A DNA stretch of 6,119 nucleotides, from IMG/VR virus record IMGVR_UViG_2690315994_000022, one strand, 5' to 3'. Shown here piece by piece: positions 1 to 6,119 of the stretch (positions are counted from its first letter, which is position 1; each line of letters starts with the position of its first letter). The position numbers and the translations under genes are program-made. Below the pieces are notes generated by a model that saw only the letters and a program-made list of their open reading frames with translations, ran no database searches and was not told where the DNA came from. This stretch comes from a virus (lineage: Duplodnaviria > Heunggongvirae > Uroviricota > Caudoviricetes).

Positions 1-432
1 TATATTTTCAGTGCCGATAAAAATGCGTTTTTCCCTGTGGAGCTTAAAATCGCTTATCAGGAATCCGGCGAATGGCCCGGTGATGGAATCGAAATTGACG
101 ACACTGTTGCCGCCGAATTTATGAAGGAAGCACCAGAAGGAAAATACAGAGGTGTCATCGACGGAATGCCTACATGGATTGATATTCCACCGCCAACTCA
201 TGAGGAACAAATTGCCGCAGCCGAACTGGAAAAGCAGCAATTGATTAATCAGGTCAACGAATACATAAACAGTAAGCAATGGCCTGGTAAAGCGGCGATT
301 GGTCGCCTGAAAGGTGAGGAACTGGCGCAATATAATTTGTGGCTGGATTATCTGGACGCACTGGAGCTGGTCGATACTTCCGGTGCGCCAGATATTGAAT
401 GGCCTACGCCTCCGGCAGTTCAGGCCAGATGA
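1..432 (+). CDS. tail fibre assembly protein (Tfa/U-type), 5'-truncated by the window edge; inverted partner copy (tfa')
   Basis: Frame 1 is open from base 1 to TGA at 430..432 (the supplied ORF starts at GTG 37 but the frame is open upstream). C-terminus LWLDYLDALELVDTSGAPDIEWPTPP matches the C-terminus of the minus-strand Tfa (AVLDYIDAVTATDTSTAPDVIWPELP), the conserved tail of phage tail-fibre assembly chaperones. Convergent with and overlapping the other tfa by 29 bp. Confidence 0.8.
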   Translation, partial: YIFSADKNAFFPVELKIAYQESGEWPGDGIEIDDTVAAEFMKEAPEGKYRGVIDGMPTWIDIPPPTHEEQIAAAELEKQQLINQVNEYINSKQWPGKAAIGRLKGEELAQYNLWLDYLDALELVDTSGAPDIEWPTPPAVQAR

Positions 433-997
433 CGTCCGGCGCTGTGCTGGTATCTGTTGCCGTCACCGCGTCAATATAATCCAGCACAGCGTTAAGTCGG
501 GTGTTTTCTGGCTGCGTCAGCTTCCGCCCGGCCTGTAATTTCAGTTGAATCAGACTGATGGAAGCCATTGCAGCATCAATCAGCGACTGGCGCTGTGCTT
601 CTGCCGCTTCTACTGCGGCGCTATGCGGTGCCTCGGTATCCGTCACCCATTTCTCACCATCCCATTTATCGTATGGCGTTAACGGTGAAAGCGTGACATA
701 ACCGTCTTTGATGGCACCGATATAATCCACTGTAACAGCTGCGCCATTTTCAGTTGAGTAAACGGTCTCATTGCGATGGTCTTCTTCATGGCTCCATCCC
801 TTACCCGTAAATACAGCCACTTTTCCCGGAATGTTTTCGCTCGGGTCAATACCAGTGGAACAGGCGGGCATACTTACGCCAGTATTAATATATTCATCAG
901 ACCAGCCGGTATATTCATACGTTACTGCATTATAATAAAAACAACGCATATCGCCCGGCACTGTAGCCAGCCCATTTTCATCAAAAACAGGTTTCAT
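404..997 (-). CDS. tail fibre assembly protein (Tfa)
   Basis: 197-aa ORF with ATG at 997..995 sharing one base with the tail-fibre stop (TAATG overlap). Same conserved C-terminal motif as tfa'. Sits directly downstream of the tail-fibre gene, as in Mu S-U, P2 H-G and e14 stf-tfa. Confidence 0.85.
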   Translation of the reverse strand: MKPVFDENGLATVPGDMRCFYYNAVTYEYTGWSDEYINTGVSMPACSTGIDPSENIPGKVAVFTGKGWSHEEDHRNETVYSTENGAAVTVDYIGAIKDGYVTLSPLTPYDKWDGEKWVTDTEAPHSAAVEAAEAQRQSLIDAAMASISLIQLKLQAGRKLTQPENTRLNAVLDYIDAVTATDTSTAPDVIWPELPEA

Positions 998-2100
998 TAT
1001 TTAGCCCTCACCAGAAAGTTAAATGCAATATTTCGTGGACGGGTTTCTGTACCTACATTTCCACTAATTTCACCATAACGTTTAACACTACGAGAGCTAA
1101 GAGCTCGTAGTGAGGAAGGCACCTTAAGACCGGGTTCGTCCGTTTTAACTATTCCCCCGTCACCATATGTAGCCAGTATTCCTGGGTTTACTCCTTCCCG
1201 TGCACTTCCTGCGGCAAGCCCGTCCCCCGTCCACAATTCCATATTGTGTGCATGATCCATAATTGTGTGTGATTGCCCTGAAAGTAGGGTACGTCCGACA
1301 TCAATCCCGCGCCCATCATCCCAGATACGAATGAAATCACCGCGTGCGTCAGGTAATGCCAGCGCCGGAAACACTTTCGCCAGCACAGGGTAATCAGTGG
1401 CAGAGAATTTCGCGCCGTTGAACTTCAAAAACACCATACCGGACCAGCTATCGATTACGGTATCTGGCATTGCAGCGGACGGCCAGAAGAACGGAACGCC
1501 AATAGCTGGAGCTCCTTCTCCCAAACCAAGGTTTTCGAGAGCCGTTTTCACCGTGCCATCCGATTTGATATCACCAAACGGATTCTTGCGGCTCAGGTAT
1601 TCAACAGCAAACCCCGATCCCAGCAATTCAACAAANNNNNNNNNNNNNNNNNNNNNNNNNNNNNNNNNNNNNNNNNNNNNNNNNNNNNNNNNNNNNNNNN
1701 NNNNNNNNNNNNNNNNNNNNNNNNNNNNNNNNNNNNNNNNNNNNNNNNNNNNNNNNAAACCAAGGTTTTCGAGAGCCGTTTTCACCGTGCCATCCGATTT
1801 GATATCACCAAACGGATTCTTGCGGCTCAGGTATTCAACAGCAAACCCCGATCCCAGCAATTCAACAAAACCGGGCAGATCACCATTATCAAGCACATCC
1901 CGTTGCGTTTTATCACTTACAAACTGGGCCAGAGCTGCAGCAATAAAGCTGGCCTGCCGAATAACCTTATTGACTTGCGCACTGGAGGCTTTCCCTGCTG
2001 TAAATCCGGATAAAAGCGCGGGCAACGCTTCCCATTCCTCCTGCGATATAACATTGGCATTTCGATCCGTTGCAAACGCTTTAAAGTCATTTTTCGTCAT
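997..2100 (-). CDS. tail fibre protein: constant N-terminal part plus exchangeable tail-collar-type C-terminal part; length inflated by a scaffold gap and a 234-bp duplication
   Basis: Start preferred at ATG 2100..2098 (MTKNDF...), forming an ATGA overlap with the upstream stop and preceded by GGGGAG about 10 nt away; the supplied ORF start at 2118 has its AGGAG too close. The C-terminal part (...[41 protein letters not shown]...) resembles the phage tail-collar motif. A crossover site lies in frame at 1516..1541. The ORF contains 121 N and a duplicated 78-codon block; the real product is probably about 289 aa. Confidence 0.75.
1516..1541. other. 26-bp gix/hix/cix/pix-type recombination crossover site (site 1) inside the tail-fibre ORF
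   Basis: TTCTCCCAAACC-AA-GGTTTTCGAGAG: two imperfect inverted 12-bp half-sites around a 2-bp core, with the AAACC-NN-GGTTT centre typical of Hin/Gin/Cin/Pin sites. Lies at the junction between the N-terminal and collar-type parts of the tail fibre, and a Pin invertase is encoded in the window. Confidence 0.65.
1523..1635. repeat. 113-bp exact direct repeat, copy A (left of the N gap)
   Basis: Compared base by base with 1757..1869: identical. Starts at the AAACC of crossover site 1 and ends at the first N. Confidence 0.95.
1636..1756. other. run of 121 N: scaffold/assembly gap, not biological sequence
   Basis: Uninterrupted n characters; flanked by identical 113-bp sequence on both sides. 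Confidence 0.98.
1757..1869. repeat. 113-bp exact direct repeat, copy B (right of the N gap)
   Basis: Identical to 1523..1635. The post-gap sequence begins inside the crossover site, at its AAACC. Confidence 0.95.
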
Positions 2101-2780
2101 CAGAGTAATACTCCCCATGCTCCTACATCAAAACCACTGATGAATTCGTTATCCATATCAAAACCAAAAAATTTTGAGCCTTCCGATGGGGTTTCCACCG
2201 AAGGTGTTTCAATGCCACCCGCCCATACCCCGGCGGCTTTTACTGTGAGATACCCCTGTTTAATTGCCGCAATTAACTCACGCGATACATCTGAAATATC
2301 AGTATCAGGAAAGACCCAGACCGATATCGTCATGTCCTGGTTATCGACTATCTGCATTCGCAGCCCGGATCCTGCTGTTGCCGCGTCAAGAATTGCCAGA
2401 AGCGAATCATTCCGTCCGTCCCAGTTATTAATCGCAATCTTCGCTTTAAGAATGACACGATAAGTTTCATCGCTGAGATACATGTATCCTGAATCAGGAT
2501 CGTATGGTCCCTGCCATACCCCCTGATCATATCCAAGCCCGTCGGTATCCCAGCTGAAATAGACACCTGAGATAGGCTGGCTGACAACACGGCTACGTCC
2601 GATCCACAATCCAAGAATGTCAAGTTGCACACCAACCGCAGAGTCAATATCAAATGCAGTAATCAGCCCTCTGGTGGCAGCCGCAACATCAATAAGTGGC
2701 CGGGTCATCAGATCAACATGCGCAAGAAATTTAGGTTTGGTGGCGTGGTAGTTCGTGATTAGTTCGGTGTATTTGCTCAT
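2100..2780 (-). CDS. phage tail/baseplate protein, Mu gp48 / YmfQ-like
   Basis: 226-aa ORF between the baseplate-J-like gene and the tail-fibre gene, the position occupied by Mu gp48, e14 YmfQ and P2 gpI. ATGA overlaps at both ends (2780..2777 and 2102..2098). Family assignment is by position and general resemblance, not a search. Confidence 0.6.
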   Translation of the reverse strand: MSKYTELITNYHATKPKFLAHVDLMTRPLIDVAAATRGLITAFDIDSAVGVQLDILGLWIGRSRVVSQPISGVYFSWDTDGLGYDQGVWQGPYDPDSGYMYLSDETYRVILKAKIAINNWDGRNDSLLAILDAATAGSGLRMQIVDNQDMTISVWVFPDTDISDVSRELIAAIKQGYLTVKAAGVWAGGIETPSVETPSEGSKFFGFDMDNEFISGFDVGAWGVLL

Positions 2781-3976
2781 GACTCCACCGTTATAACGAT
2801 ATTTTCCGGGGTACAGGACACAGATTCGTTGTATCTGATATCAATGTTTGATGACGACAAAGCCCCCGGGGATTTCCCAATCGTCAGTTCCTGAATATCG
2901 TAATAGCGTGCATTCCCGCCACTCACCACGCCAAGATTCGCCGGTGAGTAAATGCGACTTAAAAGGACCGAATCACCAATCATCAGACTATTGATATAGT
3001 CGGAAATAGCCTGCTGGATCTGCTGCCCTATCTGTGAGGTATAACCCGTAAAAACTTGTAATTTGATCCGGGCATAAACAGGCACATCACTGGAACGCGA
3101 GAATTTGATTACATGGGGATTGCCGTATTTATCCGGAACCGTAACGGATGTTGTACCGTGAGTGGCTGTCCCCTGGCCTTTATTTCCTCTGATAGCCTGA
3201 GCAATATCCGTCACATCACCGCCATCCACAATTACAGCAACAGAGTGTGGCGGTAACCCGTTACCGTCCTCCGAACCAGTATCGTTTTCATAGAGTTTGT
3301 GGCGGGTTACACCGGTAACATTAGAAACAGCACCATCCAGTGCTTCAAATGGGGTTATTGATGGCAACGCAACACTTTGCGACTGGCGGATACGTAACTC
3401 CGCATCAGTTTCTGCTGGAGTGCCTACAGTAGCTGCAGCAGGATTGGTTACCGAAACCCAGCCACGGGTTGGCGTATTAATTTCAGTGATAGTTCCAGCC
3501 AGCGCCGCCACTGCACCACTGACGGAACATGTTGCGGTCACCATCACTGTACCATCCACGCCGACCACCACTGAAGCAGGCAAACGCCATATCACATTAT
3601 TACTGTCTTTCACGCTGCCATTAATGATGGTTGTTCCGGCAGTTCCTGTAAGAAGCAAATCAACCGTAGAATTCGTCGCGCCTTTACGTGAAATACCATT
3701 TATTTTCACGTTACTGGTCAGTGCAGCCCCATAGCCGGTTGCCGGTGAAAAACAGTTGTAGACAGTTATCGCCATATTATTGGCATCATGAATCGCCAGC
3801 GCCATCAGAGCCACCATCTGGCCGTCTTTGCTGTCCGGTTCGAGGTAGGCATCACTGCCATAAATCTGCTGAAAATAGCTAATCAGGGTGCTGAGTATCG
3901 TCTGATAATCAGGCGCACTGATCCCCTCCGCGGTTACCTTTGCAGATAAACCGAGAGAATCAAGGTTCAGAGCCAT
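2777..3976 (-). CDS. baseplate J-like protein (Mu gp47 / P2 gpJ family)
   Basis: 399-aa ORF; size, composition and position immediately upstream of the gp48-like and tail-fibre genes fit the baseplate J family. GGAGG lies just upstream of ATG 3976. The stop overlaps the next gene's start (ATGA). Confidence 0.8.
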   Translation of the reverse strand: MALNLDSLGLSAKVTAEGISAPDYQTILSTLISYFQQIYGSDAYLEPDSKDGQMVALMALAIHDANNMAITVYNCFSPATGYGAALTSNVKINGISRKGATNSTVDLLLTGTAGTTIINGSVKDSNNVIWRLPASVVVGVDGTVMVTATCSVSGAVAALAGTITEINTPTRGWVSVTNPAAATVGTPAETDAELRIRQSQSVALPSITPFEALDGAVSNVTGVTRHKLYENDTGSEDGNGLPPHSVAVIVDGGDVTDIAQAIRGNKGQGTATHGTTSVTVPDKYGNPHVIKFSRSSDVPVYARIKLQVFTGYTSQIGQQIQQAISDYINSLMIGDSVLLSRIYSPANLGVVSGGNARYYDIQELTIGKSPGALSSSNIDIRYNESVSCTPENIVITVES

Positions 3977-4141
3977 TACGCCTCCGATGTAACAGTCGTT
4001 ATTCCATAAAGAGTGTCGATTTCAGCGGAAAACATGACACGTCGGGTCGTGGTATCCACCGTCGTATTGAAAGAGAGGATTGATTTAACGCCCNAAACCA
4101 ACGTTTATGAAAATGCAGAAATAACGAGCAAATGGCATCAT
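3976..4141 (-). pseudogene. short ORF or 3' gene remnant upstream of J that reads through crossover site 2; frame depends on the ambiguous base at 4094
   Basis: With the n at 4094 omitted, the minus strand reads MMPFARYFCIFINVGLGVKSILSFNTTVDTTTRRVMFSAEIDTLYGITTVTSEA and stops at TAA 3978..3976, sharing one base with the J start (TAATG). With n kept as a real base the frame stops at 4087..4085. No convincing RBS at its 5' end. Confidence 0.3.
4088..4113. other. second gix/pix-type crossover site (site 2), 55 bp upstream of pin; contains an ambiguous base
   Basis: ACGCCCnAAACC-AA-CGTTTATGAAAA has the same AAACC-AA-(C/G)GTTT centre as site 1. If the n is dropped, the left arm AACGCCCAAACC matches site 1's TTCTCCCAAACC at 9 of 12 positions. 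Its position just upstream of the invertase gene is the canonical one for the invertase-proximal site in Gin/Cin/Pin systems. Confidence 0.55.
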
Positions 4142-4154
4142 TCCTGCTTTTGTC

Positions 4155-4160
4155 AGGGAG
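4155..4160 (+). promoter_or_regulatory. Shine-Dalgarno sequence for pin
   Basis: AGGGAG, 7 nt upstream of ATG 4168. Confidence 0.5.
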
Positions 4161-4167
4161 ATCTACC

Positions 4168-4722
4168 ATGCTTATTGGCTATGTACGTGTGTCAACAAAT
4201 GACCAGAACACAGATCTACAACGTAATGCGCTGAACTGTGCAGGATGCGAGCTGATTTTTGAAGACAAGATAAGCGGTACAAAGTCCGAAAGGCCGGGAC
4301 TGAAAAAACTGCTCAGGACATTATCGGCAGGTGATACGCTGGTGGTCTGGAAACTGGACCGACTGGGGCGCAGTATGCGGCATCTTGTCGTGCTGGTGGA
4401 GGAGTTGCGCGAACGAGGCATCAACTTTCGTAGTCTGACGGATTCAATTGATACCAGTACCCCAATGGGGCGCTTTTTCTTTCATGTGATGGGTGCCCTG
4501 GCTGAAATGGAACGTGAACTGATTGTTGAACGAACAAAAGCAGGACTGGAAGCTGCTCGCGCACAGGGACGAATTGGGGGACGTCGTCCCAAACTTACAC
4601 CAGAACAATGGGCGCAGGCCGGGCGATTAATTGCATCAGGCGTTCCTCGCCAGAAGGTGGCGATCATCTATGATGTTGGCGTATCGACTTTGTATAAGAA
4701 GTTTCCGGTCGGAGATAAATGA
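4168..4722 (+). CDS. pin: serine DNA invertase of the Pin/Gin/Hin/Cin (Din) family
   Basis: 184-aa product starting MLIGYVRVSTNDQNTDLQRNAL, with the catalytic-serine motif YVRVSTNDQ, the conserved WKLDRLGRS and GALAEMERELI blocks, and a C-terminal helix-turn-helix (VAIIYDVGVSTLYKK). Close to Gin/PinE as remembered. Start chosen at ATG 4168 rather than the supplied ORF's 4132 because of the RBS and family N-terminus. Confidence 0.95.
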   Translation: MLIGYVRVSTNDQNTDLQRNALNCAGCELIFEDKISGTKSERPGLKKLLRTLSAGDTLVVWKLDRLGRSMRHLVVLVEELRERGINFRSLTDSIDTSTPMGRFFFHVMGALAEMERELIVERTKAGLEAARAQGRIGGRRPKLTPEQWAQAGRLIASGVPRQKVAIIYDVGVSTLYKKFPVGDK

Positions 4723-5027
4723 AACCGTAGCACGTCGTATGCAAGAACGTGCCACGGCTGGCTGATGGACGTTCGATAGCGCGAGTTTGAATGAAAATCA
4801 GCCGGAGATGATTTTACATAATTGCTACGGAATTATTCAATACAGGAATTGCTTGTGTATGCATGGATTGACCTGAAATATTCCCGAAAATTTCTCTAAA
4901 AAACTCGAAAAAAATGGTAACTAATTGAATGTATTAATATGTAATAGTACGTGTTAGAGATTAAAAGATGAGCATAAATTTATTTAACACATTAATTCTA
5001 AAAGATTTTGTTGTTTGTTGACGAAAA

Positions 5028-5052
5028 CAGGAATCGTGTTCGGTCTCTTTTT
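5028..5052 (+). ncRNA. sdsR: probable 3'-terminal fragment of sRNA SdsR (RyeB), i.e. candidate prophage attachment-site core
   Basis: CAGGAATCGTGTTCGGTCTCTTTTT matches, with one mismatch, what I recall as the SdsR terminator 3' half (..CAGGAAUCGUAUUCGGUCUCUUUUU). The upstream arm of the terminator stem is not complementary here, so only the 3' part is present. From memory, not searched. Confidence 0.35.
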
Positions 5053-5171
5053 ATCTGTTAAAAGCCAGAAGCATTTCCTTCGCTGACTTTATAGTCAACC
5101 ATAACACACACTCTACTGTCTGAGTCCAGCGTTTTTTAACATTCTTGTTAAGATTATGTGATCTTTAGCGC

Positions 5172-5177
5172 GGGAGG
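5172..5177 (+). promoter_or_regulatory. Shine-Dalgarno sequence for pphA
   Basis: GGGAGG, 9 nt upstream of ATG 5187. Confidence 0.5.
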
Positions 5178-5186
5178 AAAATATTG

Positions 5187-5843
5187 ATGAAACAGCCTGC
5201 GCCCGTTTATCAGAGAATTGCGGGTCATCAATGGCGACATATCTGGCTTTCTGGCGATATACACGGTTGTCTTGAGCAGTTGCGCCGCAAATTATGGCAT
5301 TGTCGTTTTGATCCGTGGCGAGATTTACTTATCTCAGTGGGAGACGTTATCGATCGTGGGCCGCAAAGTTTACGTTGTCTGCAGTTACTGGAACAACATT
5401 GGGTTCGTGCGGTAAGAGGCAATCATGAACAGATGGCGATGGATGCGCTGGCATCCCAGCAGATGTCTTTGTGGTTGATGAATGGCGGCGACTGGTTTAT
5501 TGCGCTGGCAGATAATCAACAGAAACAAGCGAAAACGGCGCTGGAAAAATGTCAGCATTTGCCCTTTATTCTTGAAGTACACAGCCGCACCGGCAAACAT
5601 GTTATTGCTCATGCCGATTATCCAGATGATGTTTATGAATGGCAAAAGGACGTTGATTTGCATCAGGTCTTGTGGAGCCGCTCGCGATTAAGTGAACGCC
5701 AAAAAGGGCAGGGAATTACAGGTGCTGATCATTTCTGGTTTGGTCATACACCGTTGCGCCATCGCGTGGATATTGGCAACCTGCATTATATTGATACCGG
5801 CGCTGTCTTTGGGGGCGAACTGACTTTCGTGCAATTGCAATAA
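5187..5843 (+). CDS. pphA: serine/threonine protein phosphatase 1 (PPP-family metallophosphatase)
   Basis: 218-aa product MKQPAPVYQRIAGHQWRHIWLSGDIHGC... with the metallophosphatase motifs GDIHG, GDVIDRG and GNHE; recognised as E. coli PphA/PrpA. Start at ATG 5187 (the supplied ORF begins at TTG 5184). Confidence 0.9.
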   Translation: MKQPAPVYQRIAGHQWRHIWLSGDIHGCLEQLRRKLWHCRFDPWRDLLISVGDVIDRGPQSLRCLQLLEQHWVRAVRGNHEQMAMDALASQQMSLWLMNGGDWFIALADNQQKQAKTALEKCQHLPFILEVHSRTGKHVIAHADYPDDVYEWQKDVDLHQVLWSRSRLSERQKGQGITGADHFWFGHTPLRHRVDIGNLHYIDTGAVFGGELTFVQLQ

Positions 5844-6035
5844 TTAAAAATCACCATACTCCTGTGCTGGTCGCCAGAAACCATCTATAAAATCCTCAAT
5901 CGGAAAACAACCGCCATGACGGATCCGTTGATCGCTCATAGAATAAAGACACTGCTGTTCCGTGTTGTAGACATCCACAACAATATCTTCACAACCGCCA
6001 TCCAGGTAGCAAACAAAAAGTACCAGCGCGAACAT
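5844..6035 (-). CDS. yebW: small conserved protein, YebW-like (63 aa); the ORF stays open to the window edge so the start is uncertain
   Basis: Minus-strand ORF ending at TAA 5846..5844, directly abutting the pphA stop. An internal ATG at 6035..6033 gives a 63-aa product (MFALVLFVCYLDGGCEDIVVDV...EYGDF), the size I recall for YebW beside pphA in E. coli K-12. Symbol is from memory. Confidence 0.45.
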   Translation of the reverse strand: MFALVLFVCYLDGGCEDIVVDVYNTEQQCLYSMSDQRIRHGGCFPIEDFIDGFWRPAQEYGDF

Positions 6036-6119
6036 TTCATCCCCGAAGTGTGGTGCCGTACCGTTAAGTTTAGGAGAGATTTTACAACGGGGGAATAACC
6101 AGGACAAATAACCCGCCAT

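Follow-up and report, generated by a model that had tools for sequence, protein, structure and literature searches.

A baseplate gene fragment abutting the pin-proximal crossover site of a contractile-tail prophage, probably joined there by sequence assembly

INTRODUCTION

Invertible tail fiber switches such as e14 P-pin, Mu G-gin, and P1 C-cin combine a DNA invertase with 26-bp crossover sites of the 12-2-12 type. Invertases of the Gin/Hin family disfavor sites arranged as direct repeats. Iida and Hiestand-Nauer (1986, 1987) reportedly found that Cin-type invertases also use quasi-sites (cixQ) at low frequency. In the 12-2-12 anatomy, strands are exchanged at the central dinucleotide (PMC4134206), and one account describes invertases of this family as acting on inverted sites in an enhancer-dependent complex (PMC3798978). 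Such regions have left traces in sequence assemblies as well, since artifactual duplications and extra contigs were reported at the invertible tail fiber segments of Escherichia coli EC958 (PMC4134206).

Here, we analyzed a 6,119-nucleotide stretch of IMG/VR record IMGVR_UViG_2690315994_000022 (the window). Like the Pin, Gin, and Cin systems, the window combines a pin-type invertase with a complete fiber-internal crossover site, alternative fiber ends, and tail fiber assembly genes, and its pin-proximal site keeps the core and the outer half. In contrast to those systems, this pin-proximal site, as written in the record, is missing 7 nt on the outer side of its inner half, abuts a baseplate gene rather than a variable fiber end, and directly repeats the fiber-internal site. 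A first-pass annotation had proposed that a short open reading frame (ORF) reading through the pin-proximal site was either an exchangeable or vestigial C-terminal module or the 3' end of a gene broken by recombination at the site. We find that most of this ORF is the end of a sheath-initiator baseplate gene and that its connection to the invertase side is probably an artifact of assembly.

RESULTS

Layout of the window and gene order in relatives

The pphA/yebW end of the window has 99.7 to 99.9% identity to E. coli from the O55:H7/O157:H7 lineage, and the remainder is the tail end of a contractile-tail prophage (Table 1). The tail fiber gene is colinear with the fiber genes of strain DEC5E and others, except for 234 extra positions. 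The serine invertase gene (Resolvase plus HTH_7) begins 55 nt to the right of the pin-proximal site (site 2); it is pinE by annotation in relatives, and exactly this protein occurs in many genomes. A scan of positions 3900 to 4300 for promoters and terminators returned nothing on either strand.

Table 1. Features of the window, in order of position
Feature	Coordinates	Strand	Details
Alternative tail fiber assembly gene	1..432	+	Leaves the window at the left end; Caudo_TAP, E 6.2e-34
Tail fiber assembly gene	404..997	-	Caudo_TAP, E 4.7e-27
Tail fiber gene	997..2100	-	Constant part, site 1, variable part, with the N run inside; from the ORF list
Site 1	1517..1542	+	Complete 26-bp crossover site inside the tail fiber gene; TTCTCCCAAACC AA GGTTTTCGAGAG
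121-N run	1636..1756	.	Exact 113-nt direct duplication on both sides (1523-1635 = 1757-1869)
Baseplate wedge gene (DUF2612/Phage_Wedge1)	2100..2780	-	PF11041, E 4.4e-47
Baseplate J gene	2777..3976	-	PF04865, E 1.1e-15; baseplate J/gp47 by annotation in relatives
Baseplate gene 3' fragment	3976..4093	-	Gly80-Ala117 plus TAA of the 117-aa sheath-initiator gene
Single n	4094	.	Sole link between the baseplate gene fragment and the pin-side sequence
Partial crossover site	4095..4113	+	AAACC (last 5 nt of the inner half), core AA at 4100-4101, CGTTTATGAAAA
pin leader region	4114..4167	+	97-98.5% colinear with pinE upstream regions of complete genomes
pin-type serine DNA invertase gene	4168..4722	+	184 aa; Resolvase, E 1.5e-51; HTH_7, E 3.5e-14
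Chromosomal pphA	5184-5843	+	Right end of the window; yebW also there, on the minus strand

In intact relatives, the genes run in the order spike, 117-aa sheath initiator, J, wedge, fiber, and assembly gene, followed by a reversed assembly gene, a reversed variable fiber part, a crossover site, pin, and pphA. This order was seen in every intact relative fetched (one 14EC029 prophage and the pphA-adjacent prophages of O55:H7 strains DEC5A and DEC5E) and in 9 of 10 loci with exactly the same Pin protein. The tenth such locus (L007) belongs to a Mu-like prophage elsewhere in the chromosome, where the fiber-pin layout is alike. DEC5E, the closest complete relative, has the J/baseplate block in two copies. 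Another lead, the Shigella pinD/defective Mu prophage reportedly described by Tominaga in 1997, was set aside: the window prophage is not Mu-like (J/gp47, DUF2612 wedge, PF10934), and the Shigella flexneri representative has an ordinary pin-proximal site.

The fragment upstream of J belongs to a gp25-like sheath initiator

Translated, the 38 codons from 4092 to 3979 match residues 80 to 117 of a gp25-like "sheath initiator" baseplate protein of 117 aa with 100% identity, and the nucleotides up to 4093 are identical to positions 6277 to 6394 of one relative (L001) and to more than 20 complete genomes. The identity of the 117-aa protein was settled by PHROGs, where the full-length sequence matches PHROG 120 (baseplate wedge subunit; E 7.5e-37). 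It also has a precomputed match to PF10934 ("Sheath_initiator"), in contrast to local scans of the full-length protein, which gave no match in Pfam (to E 10) or NCBIfam (to E 1); the RefSeq name in several genomes is "contractile injection system sheath initiator." The place of the fragment is immediately upstream of baseplate J, where its stop overlaps the J start as in three relatives (L001, L002, and L014). Compared to the intact gp25-like gene (PF10934; PHROG 120) in the pphA-adjacent prophages of E. coli O55:H7 and many other strains, the window has the identical 3' end and J overlap but only residues 80 to 117: homology ends at 4093, leaving an incomplete coding sequence, and the 5' two-thirds of the gene (residues 1 to 79) does not adjoin it. 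By its sequence, the fragment is a stump of the sheath-initiator baseplate gene, whether the join beside it is real or an artifact.

The short ORF exists as a single frame only when the n is removed

Deleting the n at 4094 yields, on the minus strand, an ORF of 54 codons (MMPFARYFCIFINVGLGVKSILSFNTTVDTTTRRVMFSAEIDTLYGITTVTSEA) with the translation MMPFARYFCIFINVGLGVKS...TSEA*. The core of site 2 then forms bases 2 and 3 of a GTT (Val) codon. Site 1, read on the same strand, is translated A-L-E-N-L-G-L-G-E within the tail fiber ORF, with the core TT as bases 2 and 3 of CTT (Leu). Both codon readings given in the first-pass annotation, and the shared phase that follows from them, are thus confirmed by the sequence. 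The course of the ORF from site 2 to a TAA sharing one A with the J ATG (GCGTAATGGCT; TAATG at 3976-3980) also agrees with the sequence, but only with the n removed. Whichever of the four bases is put at 4094, a TAA shuts the baseplate gene frame 4 codons upstream of Gly80. When the n is kept, there is instead a 41-codon ORF starting at TTG, whose length is unchanged with A, C, or G at this position; a T creates TAG at its third codon.

The first 16 codons of the n-deleted ORF (its N-terminal part) are the antisense of the pin leader, and no protein covers them among the six matches to the 54-aa translation in a collection of 5.8 billion sequences. All of these matches are baseplate proteins or their fragments. 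The search therefore answered the question raised in the first-pass annotation, whether the translation resembles phage tail fiber C termini or gp25/W-like baseplate proteins, in favor of gp25-like proteins; there was no fiber among the matches, and in none did the 38-aa sequence form the C terminus of a full-length tail fiber. Exact look-up gave no record for the 41-aa ORF or for the N-containing fiber ORFs.

A shared codon phase, as with site 1, had been described as a requirement for sites that swap protein C termini. One match in three is expected by chance, and the GGT TTG GG part simply keeps the phase in which an inner half-site is normally read. The overlap with J through TAATG likewise comes from the intact baseplate gene-J junction. 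We conclude that the 54-codon ORF arises only by deleting a placeholder n and is neither a gene nor an exchangeable module.

Site 2 as written lacks the outer part of its inner half-site

Crossover sites were scored with a half-site matrix built from ten distinct half-sites, in every register around the break and over 177,734 positions. Site 1 is identical to the fiber-internal site of relatives and scores 34 bits. The usual pin-proximal site in relatives reads ...TTCTCCCAAACC AA CGTTTATGAAAA, whereas site 2 (4088-4113) reads ACGCCCnAAACC AA CGTTTATGAAAA and matches it fully only from 4095 rightwards (AAACC AA CGTTTATGAAAA). From 4095 to 4113, the window is identical to the pin-proximal sites of 13 loci (L002-L012, L014, and L015) and of 36 metagenome contigs. 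The outer 7 nt of the left half of site 2 are baseplate gene sequence plus the n, leaving 8 of 12 positions matching without the n. In the window, sites 1 and 2 form direct repeats, each having its inner half on the left; the two sites of relatives are inverted.

The junction falls on a polymorphic base and has the same offset as the contig boundary at site 1

Complete genomes are colinear with the window up to 4093 and none beyond, while the match to the pin side begins at 4091 and carries a one-base gap at the n. As written, the join has GATTGATTTAACGCCC to the left and AAACCAACGTTTATG to the right of 4094, and the pin-side sequence is AAACCAACG; the intact baseplate gene at the break reads ...GATTTAACGCCC[C/T]GCGTTTCGAGGATG. 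The switch between parental sequences therefore lies between 4091 and 4095, which is 6 to 9 nt to the left of the central dinucleotide at 4100-4101. In the intact gene, C and T both occur at the position of the n (68 C and 29 T in 97 IMG/VR contigs), a common polymorphism that specifies Arg or Gln at residue 79. The n also sits between two homopolymer runs (CCC and AAA). The earlier remark that everything hinges on whether the n is a real base was apt, and this base coincides with natural variation in the baseplate gene.

To the right of the n, the first letters of pin-side sequence are AAACC, an offset shared with the sequence that follows the 121-N run at site 1. In relatives, the base preceding AAACC varies (C, A, or T). 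The 113-nt duplication around the N run begins at the AAACC of site 1. Relatives are without this duplication: DEC5E, with a single copy there, has 3,732 bases against 3,963 window positions.

The join is confined to this record among the collections scanned

None of 5,426 complete E. coli genomes contains the join, although 307 of them carry the block; any join that put the baseplate fragment beside pin would have shown in this comparison as a location with query coverage of 80% or more, and there was none. Likewise, the join occurs in none of 36 metagenome contigs whose 76-nt pin leader is identical, all of which have an ordinary variable fiber part to the left of the site. At the same site, one metagenome contig (L025) is a palindromic chimera. 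Junction-pattern scans of genome, metagenome, and viral collections recovered the join in none, with the intact gene found in 97 viral contigs as the positive control for the IMG/VR scan. No protein spanning the join was present in the 5.8-billion-sequence search. In IMG/VR, the canonical product of recombination at a quasi-site was absent, as was the reciprocal junction predicted from an inversion, for which IMG/VR was the one collection scanned.

DISCUSSION

The connection between the baseplate gene fragment and pin is probably a scaffold artifact that arose when an invertible tail fiber region was assembled. The intact sheath-initiator gene normally has its place just upstream of J, to which it is translationally coupled; according to this explanation, the assembler would have abutted the fragment and the outer part of the pin-proximal site through one n, so that the connection would not be sequenced DNA. 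An invertible fiber region together with two J/baseplate copies, as found in close relatives, makes an assembly graph branch at crossover sites and at polymorphic bases. All three internal boundaries of the window (1757, 4093, and 4095) lie where such branches would arise, because the position of the n is polymorphic and the base before AAACC is variable; similarly, the two J/baseplate copies of DEC5E make a collapsed or branching contig plausible. The 121-N run, with its flanking 113-nt duplication, is an assembly gap at which the contig ends are duplicated. Together with the single n, this 113-nt overlap hints at a de Bruijn graph assembler with paired-read scaffolding.

There is precedent for this kind of error. 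As with the EC958 artifacts (PMC4134206), in which alternative junctions confuse assemblers, the contig breaks and the duplication in the window fall exactly at crossover sites, and the palindromic metagenome contig presents the same assembly problem. The window differs from EC958 in that, beyond a duplication, a whole 2.3-kb contig seems to have been placed between the invertible segment and pin.

Several observations run against an assembly join. Scaffolders usually place two ends at a distance of about 0 in a given orientation only with the support of read pairs, and the ends joined here are about 5 kb apart and oppositely oriented in the standard arrangement. The window is an exact, self-consistent outcome of a single inversion between the pin-proximal site and the interior of the baseplate gene. 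Finally, a weak half-site look-alike (CGTTTCGAGGA) lies just past the break, within the top 0.13% of positions, a coincidence of approximately 1%.

These observations keep alive, as the main though less likely alternative, a real inversion of about 5 kb private to this prophage, with one end point inside the baseplate gene and the other at the pin-proximal crossover site. The block from the 3' part of the baseplate gene to the alternative fiber end would have been flipped, either with the assistance of Pin at a secondary site or illegitimately at CCC/GGG microhomology, splitting the baseplate gene and leaving its last 38 codons beside pin; the ORF would then be a dead gene stump still carrying the coupled J start. 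Relative to DEC5A and DEC5E, every gene in the window is ordered and oriented as one inversion would have it, the scaffold agrees internally with that layout, and both inversion junctions would be in frame once the n is dropped. The intact gene at the break (candidate secondary site, TGATTTAACGCCCCGCGTTTCGAGGA) also resembles a half-site weakly (TGATTTAACGCC CC GCGTTTCGAGGA; -0.1 bits, top 0.13%), a likeness spotted after the fact.

However, the junction does not have the form expected of an invertase product. Recombination between a genuine site and a poorly matching one, as with Cin at cixQ, would give rearrangements broadly like that of the window, but cixQ products are joined at the central dinucleotide, whereas the window junction is 6 to 9 nt off. 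The canonical product here would be GATTTAACGCC(C)-core-CGTTTATGAAAA; the window has 7 more bases (AAACCAA) from the genuine inner half-site. The quasi-site score of -0.1 bits compares with 26 to 34 bits for real sites, and equally good sites occur every ~770 bp. Beyond the absence of this join and of the canonical one from the genomes and contigs of the collections scanned, the reciprocal junction that an inversion predicts (...CATCCTCGAAACGCG(G)GGGAGAAGG..., in which the 5' part of the baseplate gene is joined to the inner half-site) was missing from IMG/VR. The sole linking base is an n on a polymorphic position, and the junction offset equals that of the contig boundary at site 1. Pin-mediated recombination with a secondary site of the baseplate gene was consequently rejected as the main account, its best register scoring -0.1 bits and the junction being out of register with the core. 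A broader proposal, that the join is genuine and arose by recombination between the pin-proximal site and a weak secondary site of the baseplate gene, either through the invertase or from a break made at the invertase site, is doubtful. The first-pass suggestion of a gene broken by recombination at the site thus holds in part: the ORF does end in a broken gene, but the break lies off the crossover dinucleotide, and the single-n link to the other side most likely stems from assembly and not from recombination.

A third explanation, that the n is an ordinary miscall (for example, a CCC/AAA homopolymer ambiguity) and that the 41-codon TTG ORF is expressed and keeps J coupled, is very improbable. 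The n does lie between two homopolymer runs, and the 41-codon ORF is present with the n in place; however, this explanation requires the same unique, noncanonical junction as the inversion, and the ORF is neither on record nor accompanied by a promoter-like site on either strand of 3900 to 4300. Least credible of all is the exchangeable or vestigial C-terminal module that Pin could fuse to the tail fiber, proposed from a phase equal to that of site 1 once the n is dropped: the tail is a baseplate protein C terminus and not that of a fiber, J rather than a tail fiber assembly gene comes next, the stump shares its strand with the fiber constant part and lies upstream of it, the frame is shut by any real base at 4094, the phase match is a one-in-three chance, and sites 1 and 2 are direct repeats, so that inversion could never put the stump behind the fiber constant part and recombination would excise J, the wedge gene, and the fiber constant part as a circle, with no C-terminus swap.

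Nothing described here is new biology: the locus comprises a fragment of a well-known baseplate gene placed beside a well-known kind of fiber inversion switch. With the join probably produced by assembly, the value of the case lies in its warning that invertible tail fiber regions break short-read assemblies exactly at crossover sites and that frames built over placeholder bases at such sites can mimic designed in-phase modules. If the join were genuine, about 5 kb of tail genes would be inverted and an essential baseplate gene split, with its 5' part fused in frame to the variable fiber end at a left junction outside the window. The locus would then be a natural case of an invertase harming its own prophage off target through a noncanonical junction. 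For work on serine recombinase fidelity and prophage decay, a rearrangement of this kind, made off target by a Pin-type invertase in a natural isolate, would hold modest interest.

Baseplate gene at the break

In the intact baseplate gene of the relative L001, the 26 bp lying just past the point that corresponds to window position 4093, where homology to the baseplate gene ends, read TGATTTAACGCC CC GCGTTTCGAGGA. The right half is similar to a crossover half-site (CGTTT..CGAG), and the codon phase is the same in both settings, as judged from the Leu-Glu of ILETRG in the baseplate gene and of ALENLG, the residues that the fibre reads through site 1, its complete crossover site. The likeness is weak (top 0.13% of positions), and this weak look-alike is located exactly at the break.

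The n at window 4094 falls on a position at which the baseplate gene is commonly polymorphic (C/T), as seen at L033 and L044 and in IMG/VR loci. Among 97 IMG/VR contigs (L052 onward), 68 carry C versus 29 with T, giving either Arg79 or Gln79 in the baseplate protein.

The full-length baseplate protein had no match in our local Pfam-A scan (up to E 10) or NCBIfam scan (up to E 1), whereas precomputed annotation assigns it to PF10934; the discrepancy may reflect a difference in library version. RefSeq calls its orthologues "sheath initiator."

Coordinates of features in the window and in relative L001
Feature	Sequence	Position	Strand
Full-length baseplate protein gene	L001	6277-6630	minus
Stretch whose right half is the half-site look-alike	L001	6382-6407	
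121-N run	window	1636-1756	
N run with flanking duplication	window	1523-1869	
pin-pphA spacer	window	4723-5183	

Crossover sites, fibre gene and spacer

Inner half-sites differ between relatives (L003, L009, L010, L020, L024, and L047), with the variants TTCTCCAAAACC, TTCCCCCAAACC, TTCTCCTAAACC, and TTCTCTCAAACC, unlike the pin-side half of the sites, which is almost invariant among the relatives compared.

The 121-N run in the tail-fibre gene is flanked on both sides by an exact 113-nt direct duplication that begins at the AAACC of site 1; relatives have a single copy of this stretch. The tail-fibre ORF happens to remain in frame despite the 234 extra positions.

An AT-rich spacer of 460 nt separates pin, the invertase gene, from pphA. 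The query 4723-6119, which includes this spacer, was covered to at least 80% in only 224 of 5,426 genomes; in O157-like strains, a lambdoid prophage with nleC occupies the place of the spacer region.

A chimeric contig and a fused protein

The metagenome contig L025 (3,527 bases) contains two copies of the pin leader and site, inverted relative to each other and each attached to a different variable fibre part. The contig is a palindromic chimera that arose in assembling the invertible region.

In the 87-aa protein P0004, whose source name, "replication protein P," is wrong, C-terminal residues of the sheath initiator are fused directly to the C terminus of a DUF2612 wedge protein. This fusion implies that a deletion in some E. 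coli prophage would have removed J along with the greater part of the wedge gene.
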